Assembly: GCF_037042905.1 (NCBI RefSeq)
Contig: NC_087250.1
Coordinates: 11,410,001 to 11,474,000, forward strand
Direction of reading: 5' to 3'
DNA: 64,000 nucleotides
From: Lytechinus pictus
Taxonomy: Eukaryota
The notes beneath the pieces are model-generated. The model saw only the letters and a program-made list of their open reading frames with translations. It was not told the origin of the DNA and did not search any database. Made by a program: the position numbers and the translations under genes. Shown piece after piece: positions 8,528-18,743 of this stretch (position 1 is its first letter; every line of letters starts with the position of its first letter).

Positions 8528-10028
8528 TGTCTTGTTATGTTTGTAACTGCAAATGATAACACACTGATTTACTACACAATGCATTCATATCGCAAACAAC
8601 AATAAATTAATGGCATGTACCAAGCAGCTAAAAAGGTATCATTCCTCTCAAAATGCTTTAGTTGCTTTCAATGGGTAAAACTTCTTTCCTGAAGATGTAT
8701 ATGTACAGTTGTGCTTAAAAGTGAAGCCCACCGGAAAACGCACTCCTTCATGCTGAGAGTTGAATGTAGACAACAACGCTATAAATGTTCGGTGAGCCCA
8801 CAAGAACAAACTATATTGAATGTAACATTTTATCACCTGACTCCACAATTAAATATCTAAAACATGGCACAACTTGAACACTTGAAATATTTTCTGGTGG
8901 GAGGGGGCGGCTAGAGGTGACTTTGTCTCAATCACAATTTTTAGATATATACATGTAGATACATGTATTACTTTTATTTTTTAGGCCGACTAAAAATCAA
9001 TTATTTCCTGAACAGAGATTGTCATTGTTGGAAATTGATTGCACACCACGGGACCCATTTCATAAATCTTGTAGAATATACAAATTTGACATAACAGTTA
9101 AAAGCTACTGAAATCAAACGATCTGATTGGCTGATGGTAAATTGGTTATAGAAACTGTTCATGTGTTATCATAACTAATCCTTATGAAATGAGACCCAGG
9201 ACCCTGTTTCATAAAACTTGTTACAAAACATACTTGCAGTAATTGTTAAAGGCTACTGAAATCATGCAATATGATTGGCTGATGGTAAATTTGATATAGA
9301 AATTGTGTATTTGTTATCATTACAAGTCTACGCAACAGCACCCAGGAGAATGAAACCCAACAAACAACCTTAACTTGCATGAAAAAAAAATCAAAGAATA
9401 ACGTAAGTAAAAGTTTGAGAACAATTGGACTTACGGTATAAGAAAGTTCTGCACATTTAAATTTCATAATCACTAATGCGATGGAGATCCTCCCAATGGC
9501 AATGCGACCAAGATTTGGGATAGCAAAGTACAACTCTCCCCTTTGTACACAGAAAATACGCTCCACAACATTAACCTTTGCTCATTTTTTTAATTTCTTC
9601 GTCATTCCACGATATGATTTGAAACCTCTCATGATGTCCCTCCATGATAGTAAACACTGGGTCCCGTAACACAAAGGTTAAAATTAATCGTACACCTGAT
9701 TTTCACCATTGATTGTACACTGTAGTAAATGCAATTAATCGCAGAAAAATAATCTACGATGATTGCTAAGCTTTGTGATACAGGGATCCATATCTAGAAA
9801 CAGACTTGACCAAACTGGCGATTGAGGTAAAATATGCAGAAAATTAATTGGGGAGTTGTACAAGTGTAACGTCACACAATCAGGACACGCTGCCAATGGG
9901 ACGATGTCCACATCATCAGGGACGTCAACACTGAAATGTTCATAACTGTATTATTTGTTCTTTATTCCTCAAACTTTTAAACTTGTTCCCAGGGTTTCAT
10001 TCTCCTTTAAAGCACACATACATTACGA

Positions 10029-11195
10029 TCAAACTCCATCGCATTGGAATTTCTTATGTTTTGTGAGCGCACTGGTTTTGATGAAGCCTTTTCCACATCC
10101 ACTACACAAGAATGGTCTCTCGCCACTGTGTATACGCTTGTGAACCACCCGATCACTGCTAGTACGGAATGCTTTCCCGCAGATGTCACAGGCATATGGT
10201 TTGCTGCCAGTATGCAGCCGGACATGTTGCTTGAGGCGAGTGCTGGAGTTGAACGTCTTCATGCAGTAGTTACAGGCGAAGGGACGCTCCCCAGTGTGCA
10301 GGCGCCGGTGCTGGATGAGGGACGCACGATGCTGAAGCTCCTTCCCGCATATGTCGCAGGTGAACTTTAACCCCAGGTGGAGGCGTTCGTGGGCACGGAG
10401 GTTGGACTTGACGTTGAAGCGCATCCCGCACTGCTCGCACTGGAAAGGTTTCTCCTTCGTGTGGATGATGGCGTGGCGTTTCAGGTGCGTATCTTGGAGG
10501 AACGTCTTCCCGCATTCCTTGCAGTGGTATGGACGGAGGCCTGTGTGGATAAGCTGGTGCCGAATCAGAATCGGTCGTCTCGTGAACGACTTGTTACAGA
10601 CAGAGCACGGGAAAGGTCGTTCCCCAGTATGGACGCGCATGTGCGCCTTCAGGTCCGCATTCTGTGTGAAGGACTTACCGCACTGCTCGCACTTAAACGG
10701 ACGGAAACCCGTGTGAAAGCGTTCATGGGCACACACGTGGGACCTATGCCGGAAAGTCCTTGGGCAATACTTGCACGCGTAAGGTCGGGAATTGGAATGA
10801 ATCCTCTCGTGGTTTGCCAGCCCTTCCTTGCGGGAAAATGTTTTCCCGCACTCGTCGCATTTAAATGGCTTCAGTCCCGCGTGGCCGTTTTCGTGTCTTG
10901 TCCTGTTGGCCTCGTTGGTAAATTTCTTCTGGCATTGTTGGCAAGGGAATGGCTTCTCACCTGTATGGACTCTCTTATGCCTCTTCAGGTTAGTGTGAAT
11001 AGAAAAATCCACCCCACAAACACTGCAATGAGAAGATCTCTTCTTAACTTTTCTAACAACCTTTGGCTTTTTCGGAGTGGCCTTCACGTCAGGTTCGCGA
11101 CAGCAAGGGCAAACAGACTTGTGGATGGACTTGCGCTTTACCCTTGAAGTTCCTGTAACAGTTGGTTTGGTATTGCTACTACGCGTTATAATCAT
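10029..11195 (-). CDS. C2H2 zinc-finger protein, 388 aa, single coding exon, 11 C2H2 fingers plus a terminal C2HC finger
   Basis: The ORF contains 12 consecutive Cx2C-x12-Hx3H/C units joined by TGEKP/TGERP-like linkers. The first in-frame ATG is at 11195 (MIITRSS...). The N-terminus is basic (NLS-like); no KRAB or SET domain was recognised. Confidence 0.95.
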   Translation of the reverse strand: MIITRSSNTKPTVTGTSRVKRKSIHKSVCPCCREPDVKATPKKPKVVRKVKKRSSHCSVCGVDFSIHTNLKRHKRVHTGEKPFPCQQCQKKFTNEANRTRHENGHAGLKPFKCDECGKTFSRKEGLANHERIHSNSRPYACKYCPRTFRHRSHVCAHERFHTGFRPFKCEQCGKSFTQNADLKAHMRVHTGERPFPCSVCNKSFTRRPILIRHQLIHTGLRPYHCKECGKTFLQDTHLKRHAIIHTKEKPFQCEQCGMRFNVKSNLRAHERLHLGLKFTCDICGKELQHRASLIQHRRLHTGERPFACNYCMKTFNSSTRLKQHVRLHTGSKPYACDICGKAFRTSSDRVVHKRIHSGERPFLCSGCGKGFIKTSALTKHKKFQCDGV

Positions 11196-11923
11196 GATTG
11201 ACCCGTAATGCAAAGTGTATGTACTTTCTTCAAAATGGTATACAGCTGTATACAAAACAATGTCAAAATTTATAAAGGGCACAATAAAAGCAATATTCAA
11301 TGGCAATTAATTAGCAGATTATTCTCAATAGTACCATATTACACGTAAACAAGCGATACAAATGCAAATTGGCAATACCATAGTACTGAACGTTTCACAT
11401 TTCTTTGTGAATTGCTACATTCTTCAAATCAAAATGACTATTTCATAAAGAATTGTAGTTTTAAATGGTATACAAGCTGCCGTTGGTTGTAATTATTCAA
11501 TATTCTGCACCAGCAGTGTGGCAAGGATGCCTGGCTCACTCACTAGACTGTAATACCTGTACAGAGTTGATTGTTATCAACACACTACGTTTTCTATATG
11601 CGCATTCGGCAACGAAGGAAATTTTTGTCTGAGATTTCTGCGATCCGTTGAAGGACTGAGGGAAACTGTTGGGGCACTCGGCAATTCTTTTTGGCTGGAA
11701 TGTTGCGGAGAGGTTACCATAGATAAGTTTGCTGATAGTAATGATCATCAAAAGCATTCATAACAGGAAAAGATGTACCTGTAGTTCAGCTGCAATCAGA
11801 TTCCAATCTGCAGAAAAGACAAACAAAATACACAGCGTATGTTAATATCTTGACAGCTTCACCTACATCTGTTTATTTTCTTAATCTTATTTCATTTAAT
11901 CTGTACTATTATGTTCATTTTTA

Positions 11924-12396
11924 TGCTTTTCACACTGCATTTCCTTAAACCCATACTATCCTTAACCCCGGACTATCCTTAACCCCATACTATCCTTTTT
12001 TCGATTCACACTGTCTTTCTTAACCCCGTACTATTGCTTAGCCGCGGTTAAGGCCTTAACCCCGGGCAATCACACAGCTCATAAATATCGATGATTTTAC
12101 CATACAGAGCGCGATTAACGTGCAATTTCGACTTCTGTGATTGGCTATTGCTTAGCCCTGTTTCGTTTCACACTGCATCTCTTAGCACAGCAATTGTGGT
12201 GCTAGCACCACAATAAGCCGGCTAACCCTGCTTTTTTGCAGGGCCAGATAGTACTGTACTATTTACCGTGCTAGCCCACTTTGCTAAAACGTAGTGTCAA
12301 AACAAAGTGGGCTAAGCTTAACCCCGGGAAATTGGTGGGGCTAAGACCCCCCCTTAGCCCCACCAATTTAGGACAAAAAGTGCAGTGTGAAAAGCA
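11924..12396. mobile_element. MITE with TIR TGCTTTTCACACTGCA and TA TSD
   Basis: TA|TGCTTTTCACACTGCA ... TGCAGTGTGAAAAGCA|TA; internal CTTAACCCC/CTTAGCCC subrepeats. Confidence 0.85.
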
Positions 12397-12468
12397 TATT
12401 TCAGGACTAAAGTCACTTGCAAATATTCGTGTTTTTTATCGCAATGGGTGGTCAACAAGGATATTGTG

Positions 12469-12511
12469 ATCACAACGTTTCGTGTGCTACGGCTACACTT
12501 CATCAGGTGAT
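12469..12511 (-). ncRNA. Minimal type I hammerhead ribozyme motif (Penelope-like element type)
   Basis: Minus strand reads AUCAC-CUGAUGA-A-GUGU(AGCCGUAGC)ACAC-GAA-ACGU-U-GUGAU: stem I AUCAC/GUGAU, conserved core, stem II GUGU/ACAC, palindromic stem III ACGU, NUH triplet GUU. Confidence 0.7.
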
Positions 12512-12600
12512 ATAGAAGACATTGCGAGTGGTGGTATATACATGTACACCCTGCAGTCGAGACGGCTTGCCGGGCGACCTCCACTTGCGATGTTTTCCGT

Positions 12601-12643
12601 ATCACCTGATGAAATGTAGCAGTAGCACAGGAAAGGTTGTGAT
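12601..12643 (+). ncRNA. Degenerate second hammerhead motif, inverted copy
   Basis: AUCAC-CUGAUGA-A-AUGU(AGCAGUAGC)ACAG-GAA-AGGU-U-GUGAU; the stem II closing pair and the stem III palindrome are mutated. Confidence 0.55.
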
Positions 12644-13628
12644 CACCATATCCATTCCAAGTATCATTATCCTCAATGAATAATATCTTTAGCCTTGTTA
12701 ATAAAATCATAATAACACAGATTAGTCCGACAATAGATACAAAATGCAAAAAAAGAGATCTACAGGGAAAAAAACGGTGCCCTGCAGAAAACCTTGTCTT
12801 TAGACAAATTGCTTCAACAATATAATGCATCATTATAGGAATTTCTTTGGAAAAAAATATATTCCTAATGTCTAAGCTTTTTGCATCATTTCGAATCCTG
12901 ATAATATTAGTACAGAAAAGTTTTTAAATATCCCAAGGGAATAATATTTGAGTATTTGTGTCAATGATATTATCCATTCCAATATTTGGAACCAATTCAC
13001 TTAGAATTTGATAGAAATTGATGCAGCAGAGGAATAAACAGACCCTACCTTATTACAAGTTTACAAATTCATCTTTTCTTCAAAGCAACAAGGGCATTAG
13101 CACAGCACACCAATAATTAGAAATGCCCTGGATATGTCCATACAGACAAAATTATGTTACCTATATCTCTAGATATGGGAGATCATGAGATCTTATCCAT
13201 TTTTTCCAAGAAATAAAATGGATATCGAATACCGCCCTGGTACAGCAAAGGTTAAAAAAGTATGATAAAAAATAACCATAATAAGATGGGTGTTTCATAA
13301 TGCTATTCGTAAGTTGCGAAAGACTTTAAGCTAAACTGGTGACCCTTTCTTGAGCTATGTGATATATTCTTACGTAGTTGACTTTCTACCTAAGAACATG
13401 TTCCAGTCTTATGTCATGCATTACTTTAACTTAAGAACATCTTTATAAAACACCCACCAAGGCCCTGAACCAAAAAAATCAGTGATTAATTGCTAAATGA
13501 AGCGGCCTATCAAGATCATCCTTGGATGCACATTTTGCTCAGTTGAATGACTAGGAACCAATCAGAATTGTTATTATTAACCGCTAACTTTTGTGTTTCC
13601 GGCCCAGGTCTATTGAAGAAGTACTTAC

Positions 13629-13792
13629 CAAGGACTAAGACCCACTACTGGGTGGACTATGTACACACTCGGAAGAGCAGTAAGGTCAAGGTTCTCTGTG
13701 GATGAATTGTAGTTCACTGCAAGAAAAGTTCATCCCTAATATATCAGTCTCTAGATTGATGCATCTTACAAAATCTACTGCTCAAGAGATTT
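13629..13792 (-). other. Probable 5'UTR exon of the zinc-finger gene
   Basis: Minus strand has a polypyrimidine tract + TGCAG acceptor at 13793-13795 and a TTG|GTAAGT donor at 13628. The exon holds only short ATG-stop uORFs. Confidence 0.6.
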
Positions 13793-13896: not shown

Positions 13897-14902
13897 AACA
13901 AGTGGAACGCCTCTGGCAGTCTCGCCTGCATTACGCGATTTTAATATTGCAGCAGTGCTAACTTTGAAAACTACTATAAAATAATCATTCACAAAAACAC
14001 CATTCATATAATGACATAATATCACGTTCATTGACCATAAATGACATTTGAACGGTGACTTAACTACACCCATGTCCACATTTCATTCACTCTATCTATA
14101 AACTTTCAAAGTTATGATGGCAATTCAACAATTACCCCAACATGGCCTCAGTTTATTGACCTTAACTGACCTTTGACCTTAGTTTTGTGACCTGAAACTC
14201 ACAGGGGATGTTCAGTGATACTTGATTACTCTTATATCTCAAGTTTTATGAACTAGATCCATAAACTTTCAGAGTTAGGATGGTAATTTAACAAATACCC
14301 CCAACACGGCCAAAGTTCAATGACCTTAAATGACCATTGACCATGGTCATTTGACCTGAAACTCGCACAGGATATTCAGTGGGACTTAATTAACCTAATG
14401 TCCAAGTTTCATGAACTAGATCTATGAATTTTCAAAGTTATGATGGTAATTCAACAAATACCCCCAACTTGGCCAAAGTTCATTGACCCTAAATGACCTT
14501 TGACCTTGGTCATGTGACCTGAAACGCAGGCAGGATGTTCACTAATACTTGATTAACCTTATGTCCAAGTTTCATGAACTAGGTCCATATACTTTTTAAG
14601 TTATGATGTCATTTCTAAAACTTAACCTTTGGTTAAGATTTTGAAAATAATTCTCCCAACATGGTCAAAGTTCATTGACCCTAAATGACCTTTGACTTTG
14701 GTCATGTGACCTGAAACTCAGGCAGGATGTTCACTAATACTTGATTAACCTTATGTCCAAGTTTCATGAACTAGGTCCATATACTTTTTAAGTTATGATG
14801 TCATTTCTAAAACTTAACCTTTGGTTAAGATTTGATGTTGACGCCGCCGCCGTCAGAAAAGCGGCGCCTATAGTCTCGCTCTGCTATGCAGGCGAGACAA
14901 AA
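13897..14902 (-). mobile_element. HINE/DINE-1-like (Helentron-associated) element with about 163-bp internal tandem repeats
   Basis: subTIR GTCTCGCCTGCA at both ends, adjacent short IR, (GCC)n microsatellite, 4 tandem units, T-rich insertion site. Confidence 0.75.
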
Positions 14903-15599
14903 CTATGACAGTTTGAATATTAGAACTTGTCTTACCGCCCTTTCACCTAATAAAAAATCGCAATTCATGGTTAGAAAGTGGTAACACTGACGTGATTTAC
15001 TGGTGCGTTCATACATGTACGCTTAAGCTGTATAACATTGTATAAACATGACGACCACCGATCAAAGAAAAAACCTGACCATTTGTGTTTTTCATCAAAA
15101 TTCTCTATTTTCCAGCATATATTTTGGAAAGGTGATAAGCTGATTATATTAAGCATTATTTGTTTTGAATTCTTGCACCCTTTTTCGCTCAACAAAAGGG
15201 GGAATTAAGCAGTTATCAAAGAGAGTGCGCTAGCGCACCCTTTTTCTCCATAGATGCTGTAGTTAAGCGTCATGCGAACCTCCACCATCACAAGCCCTAT
15301 GGCAGTCATCCGTCTGTGTTGGAGGAGGACAACAGAAATAAGAAAACTTTTTAAAACTCCTCCGAAACAGCTATATCAATCTAATCATAACCTTATTCAT
15401 TGAATGAATGGTCTAAAGAAGGTCTAGATCTACATAGATCTACAAAGATTCCTGGTAAATTCATGATTGTTTTACTACACATGTACATCTACCACCCTCC
15501 TAAAACCCACACCTTAATGAATCGATAATTCCTATGGATTGACCCTGATGATGGTAGTGTAGCGGTAGTGAAGTGTATCAGTCCAGCGTACACGAGCCA

Positions 15600-17327: not shown

Positions 17328-18309
17328 AACAAGTGGAATGCCTCTGGCCGTCTCACCTGCATCACGCAATTCAATATAGCAGCAGTGCTGATTTTGAAAA
17401 CTACTATAACTCGCACAAGATGTTCAGTGATACTTGGTTACTCTTATTTCCACATTTTATGAACTAGACCAATACACTTATAGAGATATGATGGCAATTC
17501 AACAAATACCCCCAACGTGGCCAAAGTTCTTTGACCTTACATGACCTTTGACCTTGATCATGTGACCTAAAACTCGCACAGGATGTTCAGTGATACTTGA
17601 TTACTCTTATGTCCAAGTTTTATGAACTAGACCAACACACTTTCAAATTTATGGCTGTAATTCAACAAATACCCCAATTTGGCCAAAGTTCATTGACCCT
17701 AAATGACCTTTGACCTTGATCATGTGACCTGAAACTTGCACAGGATGTTCAGTAATACTTGATTACTATTATGTCCAAGTTTCATGAATCAGATCCATAA
17801 ACTTTCAAAGTTATGATGGTAATTCAACAGATACCCCCAATTCGGCCAAAGTTCATTGACCCTAAATGACCTTTGACCTTGGTCATGTGACGTGAAACTC
17901 ATGCAGGATGTTCAGTGATACTTGATTAACCTTATGTATAAGTTTCATGAACTAGGTCCATATATTTTCTAAGTTATGATGACATTTCAAAAACTTAACC
18001 TTGGGTTAAGATTTTGATGTTGATTCCCCCAACATGGTCTAAGTTCATTGACCCTAAATGACCTTTGACCTTGGTCATGTGACATGAAACTCAGGCAGGA
18101 TGTTCAGTAATACTTGATTAACCTTATGGCCAAGTTTCATGAACTAGGTCCATATACTTTCTAAGTTATGCTGTCATTTCAAAAATTTAACCTCAGGTTA
18201 AGATTTGGTGTTGACGCCGCCGCCGCCGCCGCCGTCGCCGTCGCCGTCGCCGCCGCCGTCGGAAAAGCGGCGCCTATAGTCTCACTCTGCTATGCAGGTG
18301 AGACAAAAA
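17328..18309 (-). mobile_element. Second HINE/DINE-1-like element, same orientation
   Basis: Colinear with 13897-14902; longer (GCC/GTC)n tract at 18215-18260. Confidence 0.75.
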
Positions 18310-18743
18310 TCTGACTTGCAACACAATGGTGAAATTGAAAAAAAAAACAATGAATTTCAGGCAATTCATATTCATGTGACGCCGGCCTCGAAACGCAGCC
18401 TCTCATCAAATCCCAGAATCGCGTGTAGAGTGCGTGCATGGGTGCACAGACATGAGGCACCATTGTTTTTCAAAACATGACTGGCCAAGTTTTTCAGAGA
18501 AAGTCTTAGGTCAGGGCACTCCTAGTACCAATGAGGTCCAAACATTAACATGTATGGACCTCATAGGCGACAATGCGTTAAAAACAGGTTAGAAGTCCTG
18601 CACCCAAGTATTTTTATGATATTAGTGATTATTACTCGAAAAATGCAAGCTTTGTCCTCATTTGTTTAGCATTTATTAAAAAATTACCCATTAACTATAA
18701 TCCTACTCATACTTTAAATGTTATAAAATAAAGGGAAACTTAC

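Follow-up and report, generated by a model that had tools for sequence, protein, structure and literature searches.

Analysis of a 64,000-nucleotide stretch of Lytechinus pictus DNA (the window, meaning throughout the whole stretch that was analysed) identified a head-to-head pair of Penelope-type minimal type I hammerhead ribozyme motifs within an intron of a C2H2 zinc-finger gene. The motif on the minus strand is complete and lies in the sense orientation relative to the gene; that on the plus strand is degenerate. It is highly probable that the locus represents an old insertion unit, now dead, of a Penelope-like element (PLE), in which two tail-end copies, each 5'-truncated and each with a hammerhead, are joined head to head. 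The features of the locus are the following, with the evidence for each in brackets.

12469 to 12511, minus strand: complete minimal type I hammerhead motif, arm A (sequence reading, pattern match L046, stem table)
12410 to 12576, minus strand: copy A, a 5'-truncated tail-end fragment of the element (shared 3' region, BLAST to L070, sequence reading)
12577 to 12653, plus strand: arm B, a more 5'-truncated inverted copy (sequence, inverted-repeat search, arm comparison)
12658 to 12719, plus strand: 3' extension, on the copy-B side of the unit only (conserved in L004-L006, L007, L069 and L070)
11808 to 13628, minus strand: intron holding the whole unit (RNA contig X17 record 10, canonical splice sites)
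9981 to 11807, minus strand: last exon of the zinc-finger gene (RNA contig, ORF, Pfam)
13629 to 13792, minus strand: upstream exon, as far as the contig reaches (X17 record 10)

The arms of the inverted repeat, 12459-12535 and 12577-12653, are 77 nt long and 86% complementary, with 41 nt between them, and they differ at 11 of 77 positions. An earlier reading of this DNA, made from its letters alone (the sequence-only reading), had described an inverted repeat with a hammerhead motif in each arm, and this description is confirmed. When positions 12400-12720 were compared by BLAST with the whole window, nothing was returned beyond the self match and the inverted arm. No direct (tandem) copy of the unit was found in the window or in 12000-13100; the only second copy is the inverted one.

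Arm A was examined by reading the minus strand. Stem I is formed by AUCAC (12511-12507) paired with GUGAU (12473-12469), and at 5 bp it is the longest among the 30 motif loci tabulated. The core CUGAUGA (12506-12500) is followed by an extra A at 12499 and by stem II (12498-12482), which comprises GUGU/ACAC, a bulged A, GC/GC and the loop CGUA, i.e., 4+2 bp. The 3' part of the core consists of GAAA (12481-12478), the palindromic ACGU (12478-12475) and U17 at 12474, and the predicted cleavage site lies between 12474 and 12473. The sequence-only reading had assigned precisely these coordinates, stems, core and cut site to the minus copy. The critical bases C3, U4, G5, A6, N7, G8, A9, G12, A13 and A14, the A15.1-U16.1 pair and H17 are all present in arm A, and arm B keeps these too. 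Position 17 is U in arm A, and 36 of the 43 matches to the genome-wide pattern described below end in GTC; U17 is a poorer cleavage-site base than C17.

The minimal hammerheads (min-HHRs) of PLEs are described in the available text of Cervera and de la Pena (2014; PMC4209133) as having a helix I of 4-5 bp, a long helix II, a base between positions 9 and 10.1, a G10.1-C11.1 pair and a palindromic 15.2-16.2. Arm A displays the corresponding elements, namely A12499, the G12498-C12482 pair and the C12477/G12476 palindrome, and has no stable helix III. Four features were not imposed by those authors' descriptor, according to the same text: the inserted base, G10.1-C11.1, the palindrome and covarying consensus families. 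All four are present for arm A. The extra A before stem II had been listed in the sequence-only reading as a caveat; judged by the available text of PMC4209133, this base after A9 is a conserved hallmark of the class and not a defect.

The degenerate hammerhead of arm B (12601-12643, plus strand) keeps CUGAUGA and GAAA. Here, A.G replaces the G10.1-C11.1 closing pair of helix II, and AGGU replaces ACGU, with loss of the 15.2/16.2 palindrome; the plus copy had indeed been described as lacking the stem II closing pair and the stem III palindrome. Model R1, a covariance model trained on 22 other loci, gave 36.3 bits for arm A (12514-12466, E 5.7e-10) and only 16.3 bits for arm B (12598-12646, E 0.005). 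The score of arm A is partly circular, as the training loci and the candidate were chosen by one core pattern, and it adds little independent weight because most of it comes from the core that defined the training set.

Two other readings of the same letters were considered and rejected. A 189-codon open frame (12354-12923, minus strand) crosses both arms inside the intron, and its length is unusual for DNA of 38% G+C. As a coding sequence of 189 aa, 12923-12354 gave only a sub-threshold Pfam match (DUF1397, 18.5 bits vs. a cut-off of 25.7), and a 1-nt indel among relatives speaks against a coding role; the frame is probably fortuitous. A box C/D snoRNA reading of UGAUGA was set aside, as judged by eye, since there is no D box and the motif is too short.

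The anatomy of the unit extends beyond the two arms. In copy A, the hammerhead is preceded by an upstream part (12576-12512, within which the 41-nt spacer occupies 12536-12576) and followed by a 3' region from 12468 to about 12410, of which 12415-12458 is common to L003-L007. Another locus in the genome, L070, has a single copy of the motif, and its BLAST alignment spans window positions 12539-12415 with 72.8% identity over 125 nt. Read by eye, the stretch upstream of the motif in L070 also parallels window positions 12532-12567; therefore, the 41-nt spacer looks like the 5' continuation of copy A. On the copy-B side, the unit continues into the 3' extension at 12658-12719. A terminal piece of this kind is present on one side only of each unit, and the label of PLE tail, or 3' end of the element, that we propose for it derives from the available text of PMC8557442. 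Copy B lacks about 50 nt that in L070 separate the hammerhead from the terminal piece. On the opposite side, a different, high-copy repeat begins at 12405, abutting the 3' end of copy A. The segment 12372-12405 is the end of this repeat, which recurs with 97-100% identity at 9 other loci among the matches listed and has a read depth of 30-75. The region 12000-12405 holds a cluster of short palindromic repeats, such as the perfect 17-nt inverted repeat 12329-12345 / 12353-12369.

The motif was then sought across the 811-Mb genome with the core pattern CTGATGANGN{8,24}CGAAACGTH, which specifies CUGAUGA, one extra base, G...C, GAAACGU and H, and leaves stems I and II unspecified. This search gave 43 matches (20 + 23), and the reversed control gave 0 + 0. 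Arithmetic from base composition sets the chance expectation at about 3 matches genome-wide, and L037 looks like one of these. Six versions of the helix II sequence occur among the 30 loci that were returned, and all of them pair. A second small family, consisting of L049, L057, L061 and L067, has its own pattern, with 5 matches including arm A vs. 0 in the control. It has in common with arm A the extra A and a stem II of 4 bp, a bulged A and 2 bp; at one stem II pair both sides have changed, C-G against G-C. The match between arm A and L057 extends over 34 nt at 88% (E 1.6e-5).

Pairing was also assessed in an alignment (A1) of arm A, arm B, four relatives and the four members of this second family. 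The share of paired cells is 91% for helix II and 74% for helix I, compared with 12-53% when the partners are slid by 1-3 columns. At the stem II pair 20-33, four rows have G-C, three have C-G and one has A-U. Covariation scored 0.283 against 0.215 for shuffles, with 8 of the 500 shuffles scoring as high. The sequence-only reading had named a lack of covariation in stems I/II among genomic copies as counting against its interpretation; compensatory change at pair 20-33 shows that such a lack does not apply.

Searches with Rfam returned no hammerhead. The whole window gave no match at the gathering score, and positions 12350-12750, searched at E up to 10, gave 7 weak matches, none of them a hammerhead. 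When the Rfam hammerhead families were applied with E up to 10 to five control loci of the same class (L047, L049, L056, L041 and L035), none of the five was matched, and one of these missed loci adjoins an RT plus GIY-YIG ORF. In a genome scan with RF00163, the best score was 25.7 bits vs. a cut-off of 34, among the 73 of 115,913 candidates that were scored. Because the five control loci were also missed, the blank result in the window weighs little; the Rfam hammerhead models miss the whole class, and an Rfam blank should not be taken as the absence of a hammerhead.

The arm belongs to a small subfamily with about five other independent places in the genome, including L003-L006 as one group, L007, L069 and L070. 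A 21-nt word from the arm has 6 exact matches in the genome, two of which are the arms themselves. With up to 2 mismatches, there are 15 matches vs. 3 in the control, and the 9 inexact ones do not extend; on this ground, a high-copy MITE or SINE was rejected. L003-L006 are four copies of one multi-kb duplicated block, in which copy A begins exactly at core C3 and the start of its partner falls within the 3' region. Of the inverted partner in L007, just the terminal piece is left, and L069 has two copies whose truncation falls inside or beyond the motif. L070 has one long copy, made up of an upstream part, a hammerhead-like motif, the 3' region and then a piece equal to window positions 12658-12719. 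Shared intron homology of zinc-finger paralogues was rejected as the source of these resemblances: when the 5 kb flanking each side of five related loci were searched by tblastn, nothing matched a zinc finger. Nor do these flanks hold an ORF longer than 161 aa. A block of non-coding DNA, at least 6-8 kb in length, carries one copy of the unit and is itself present in four copies (L029-L032, on C4, C16 and at two places on C2) that are 83-97% identical; on one contig, two of these are separated by 37 kb and point in opposite directions.

L070 and L007 align to the arm through the entire motif. Arm A keeps all critical bases, while every relative has lost some. The core of L003-6 reads CACAAAAG vs. 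CACGAAAC in arm A, with loss of G12. L007 (L007:1524-1569) has the core CUGACAA, in which G8 is changed (C3...A8). L070 (L070:1406-1457) has UUGACAA, i.e., U3 with A8, and its stem II is preserved by an A-U pair in the place of G-C in arm A. A U3-A8 core covariation is reported for a Cercyon Penelope-like element in the available text of PMC4209133. Model R1 picked up just one of the relatives' copies, L003 (11.3 bits, E 0.3), and not L004, L007 or L070. Between the two arms in the window, 4 of 43 positions differ within the hammerhead and 7 of 34 outside it. Together with the retention of the critical bases in arm A, these figures lean toward weak selection, though the numbers are too small to tell.

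The link to Penelope is provided in the genome by the dominant family of the 43 matches, which adjoins PLE genes. At L047/L048, RVT_1 (32.8 bits vs. a cut-off of 29.6) and GIY-YIG (25.1 bits vs. 22.6) lie in the same frame of an ORF; two further motif loci of this main family adjoin GIY-YIG (L054) and RVT_1 (L040). The pattern count, these RT plus GIY-YIG neighbours and the stems uphold the class assigned in the sequence-only reading, namely a Penelope-type minimal type I hammerhead. That reading had further pointed to BLAST of the arm for Penelope parents or a MITE-like family. Such searches recovered the small subfamily of relatives described above; they gave no RT-bearing parent of the arm's subfamily, also when the long copy of L070 was used as query, and a high-copy MITE was rejected. 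In the L070 search, the hammerhead-bearing part matched known loci only, and the other matches belong to a different upstream repeat. No RT or GIY-YIG remnant was detected in the window by tblastn with three PLE ORFs of this genome (best E 3.2). Because no RT-bearing parent was found, the link of this subfamily to PLEs rests on the ribozyme type, the architecture and the 34-nt match to another short family. From its letters, 12410-12719 reads as a terminal PLE fragment and not as an autonomous element, there being no RT plus GIY-YIG ORF.

The architecture is that of a known form of PLE insertion. As stated in the available text of Craig et al. (2021; PMC8557442), PLE insertions are highly 5'-truncated, a 5'-truncated copy in inverted orientation "often" lies next to them, and a tail of 30 to 40 bp is frequently seen at just one end. 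The available text of PMC4209133 also reports dual min-HHRs in opposite strands, 100-700 bp apart. In the present genome, an inverted partner was found within 1.5 kb at 15 of 29 other motif loci (L034, L035, L042, L044, L045, L047, L048, L052-L057, L061 and L062), which, counted as independent places, make 13 of 27, because both sides of a single pair were matched at L047/L048 and again at L054/L055. At these 15 loci, the partner is always on the 5' side, head to head, and it is often truncated inside or beyond the hammerhead.

The transcriptional setting of the unit is defined by a 1,991-nt RNA contig (X17 record 10), which joins 13792-13629 to 11807-9981 with 0 and 3 other letters in the two exons, respectively. 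The intron between them, 11808-13628, has canonical splice sites on the minus strand (GT...AG; CCTTG|GTAAGT and TTCTGCAG|ATTGG). The ORF 11306-10029 (minus strand) encodes 12 C2H2 fingers (Pfam zf-C2H2, E 1.8e-53, 12 stretches). This spliced contig bears out the earlier placement of the pair in an intron, with the intact copy in sense to the zinc-finger pre-mRNA. However, the sense orientation carries no weight here, because an inverted pair always puts one arm in sense.

RNA-seq runs X21 and X22 are unstranded, with equal depth in both mate directions, and were evaluated in 333-nt bins at 90% likeness. The bin 12340-12673 has a depth of 7-14, inseparable from reads of the adjacent repeats; the neighbouring repeat-rich bins have 30-75 and the zinc-finger exon bins 0-4. 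No read ends are listed at 12473/12474, at a resolution of 333-nt bins in unstranded libraries that would leave room for ends there. Elsewhere in the window, two arrays of 163/192-nt tandem repeats (14057-14833 and 17408-18214) are each followed by a CGC run and a conserved 68-nt piece (14842-14909 and 18248-18315). Their RNA-seq depth rises to about 3,700 per bin, and joints that go back, e.g., from 17856 to 17542, are seen in about 960-1,245 reads per run. This signal reflects either abundant repeat-derived RNA or differences in array copy number. A relaxed core scan of the arrays found no hammerhead core.

Folding predictions were carried out for arm A alone and in the context of the pair. 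For the isolated 52-mer of arm A, the hammerhead stems amount to -9.4 kcal/mol vs. a minimum of -10.0. When 78 nt of context are included, the fold of lowest energy (-15.0 kcal/mol, z -1.44) is something other than the hammerhead. For a 231-nt minus-strand RNA that covers both arms, the predicted minimum-energy fold is a long hairpin of -112.2 kcal/mol, and the lowest energy among folds in which hammerhead stems I and II are retained is -60.4 kcal/mol; the hairpin is thus favoured by about 52 kcal/mol. These values lend support to the suggestion, made in the sequence-only reading, that the second arm could zip the ribozyme into a hairpin. In the zinc-finger pre-mRNA, the antisense arm (B) is transcribed before arm A.

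Our proposed account of the locus is as follows. Two truncated PLE copies are joined head to head, each with the minimal type I hammerhead that PLEs carry near their 3' end, both arms probably deriving from one insertion event. The unit would have landed in, or been inherited in, the intron of the C2H2 zinc-finger gene, and would be transcribed only as part of that intron. In the pre-mRNA, the arms would pair into the long hairpin, so that the ribozyme fold would not form. Copy A (about 12576-12410, minus strand) is the copy that keeps the core and both stems, and copy B (12577 to about 12719, plus strand) the degenerate one. The motif presumably no longer does anything. Given the hairpin fold, the published inactivity of monomers and low activity of dimers, and the lack of a second sense copy in the same RNA, arm A is most likely an inert relic. 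An inert Penelope remnant was also the alternative that the sequence-only reading itself had put forward, and it appears to be the best reading of the locus.

That reading had raised a possible built-in self-cleavage switch. In its general form, this explanation holds that the locus is a working cis-regulatory ribozyme/hairpin switch, in which the sense hammerhead stays silent unless a helicase, editing, co-transcriptional timing or the like holds off the antisense arm, and then cuts the zinc-finger pre-mRNA. The complete core and stems of the sense arm would fit such a role, as would the predicted masking hairpin, and at the four hammerhead positions that differ between the arms, arm A has the majority letter of the relatives. 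Intronic hammerheads in sense to host genes do exist in amniotes (Rfam HH9/HH10), which also counts for a switch. Nonetheless, transcription reaches the antisense arm first, and the hairpin is the more stable fold by the margin given above; U17 is the poorer cleavage-site base; and all relatives have decayed. Furthermore, single min-HHRs did not cleave in vitro and dimers had low activity, as reported in the available text of PMC4209133, and here the second copy is antisense, which leaves no tandem dimer. The inverted pair is moreover the usual form of PLE insertion, with one arm always in sense: an ordinary head-to-head insertion, as seen at the 15 of 29 loci and as described in the available text of PMC8557442, explains it. 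The switch is therefore not supported, and we regard it as very unlikely. A more specific version would be a conditional device, in which the hairpin masks the ribozyme, and unwinding or editing lets two pre-mRNAs, or a factor-aided monomer, cleave at 12474/12473 and lower zinc-finger output; this appears exceedingly improbable.

Two further explanations would make the hammerhead accidental or incidental. A chance hammerhead-like string, inside an unrelated low-copy inverted repeat, was what we first suspected from the Rfam blank and the small copy number. The family is indeed tiny, as reflected in the 6 exact matches of the 21-nt word, and about 3 chance matches to the core are expected. The count of 43 core matches vs. 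0 for the pattern read backwards overturned this view. Against it also stand the presence of stems I and II, which the pattern does not contain, the stem II design common to the second small family with one pair changed on both sides, the alignment of L070 and L007 through the motif, and the PLE head-to-head form of the unit. We conclude that chance is close to refuted as an explanation. Alternatively, the hairpin itself might be what matters: a 77-bp imperfect intronic fold-back could feed small-RNA or RNA-editing pathways, with the hammerhead incidental. The predicted -112.2 kcal/mol is compatible with this idea, and other palindromic hammerhead pairs score as microRNA-like hairpins, below the gathering cut-offs (L035 and L056, 41.9 bits vs. 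83 and 34.8 vs. 75, respectively). By contrast, the hairpin in the window has no match to a microRNA family in Rfam, either in the window search or in 12350-12750, and the depth over 12340-12673 is low and inseparable from repeat-derived reads. A role of the hairpin seems very improbable to us. The preferred reading remains that of a dead PLE insertion unit.

Compared with systems described previously, the motif resembles the min-HHRs in the available text of PMC4209133 in being of type I, with a helix II longer than the 5-bp helix I, a base left unpaired between A9 and G10.1, a G10.1-C11.1 pair and only the palindromic ACGU for helix III; the single and opposite-strand dual motifs described there are likewise probably truncated PLEs. 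It differs from PLE min-HHRs, as portrayed in that text, in that no RT/GIY-YIG ORF adjoins it and in that it has U17 where most copies in this genome have C. The unit as a whole corresponds to the PLE insertion unit of PMC8557442, in its available text, with two 5'-truncated copies head to head and a one-sided 3' extension, and this design recurs in the arm's own family (L003-6, L007 and L069) and in the RT-bearing family. Unlike the canonical unit of that source, which has pseudo-LTRs, its copies are only about 170 and 140 nt long, the extension is 45-60 nt, and copy B has a deletion of ~50 nt. The locus also shares with non-LTR retrozymes (PMC7229834; bioRxiv 10.64898/2026.07.22.740005, each in its available text) a type I hammerhead, a short non-autonomous form and a relationship to PLE pseudo-LTRs. 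Retrozymes, in the same texts, are direct tandem repeats with two ribozymes per RNA, whereas the present repeat is inverted, with one ribozyme and its antisense. In addition, a vertebrate survey covered in these available texts (PMC7229834 / bioRxiv 10.64898/2026.07.22.740005) found retrozymes to be excluded from introns, whereas the copy in the window is intronic.

The locus is a decayed Penelope-type hammerhead pair of a kind already described in print and, as one more such pair, is of little consequence alone. The intronic hammerheads of amniotes (Rfam Hammerhead_HH9 and HH10) are single, conserved, fold as monomers and have a full helix III. The motif analysed here is like them in being intronic and in sense to the host pre-mRNA, and no Rfam hammerhead family matches it. 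Should the sense copy cleave in vivo, the amniote intronic hammerheads would have a counterpart in an invertebrate.
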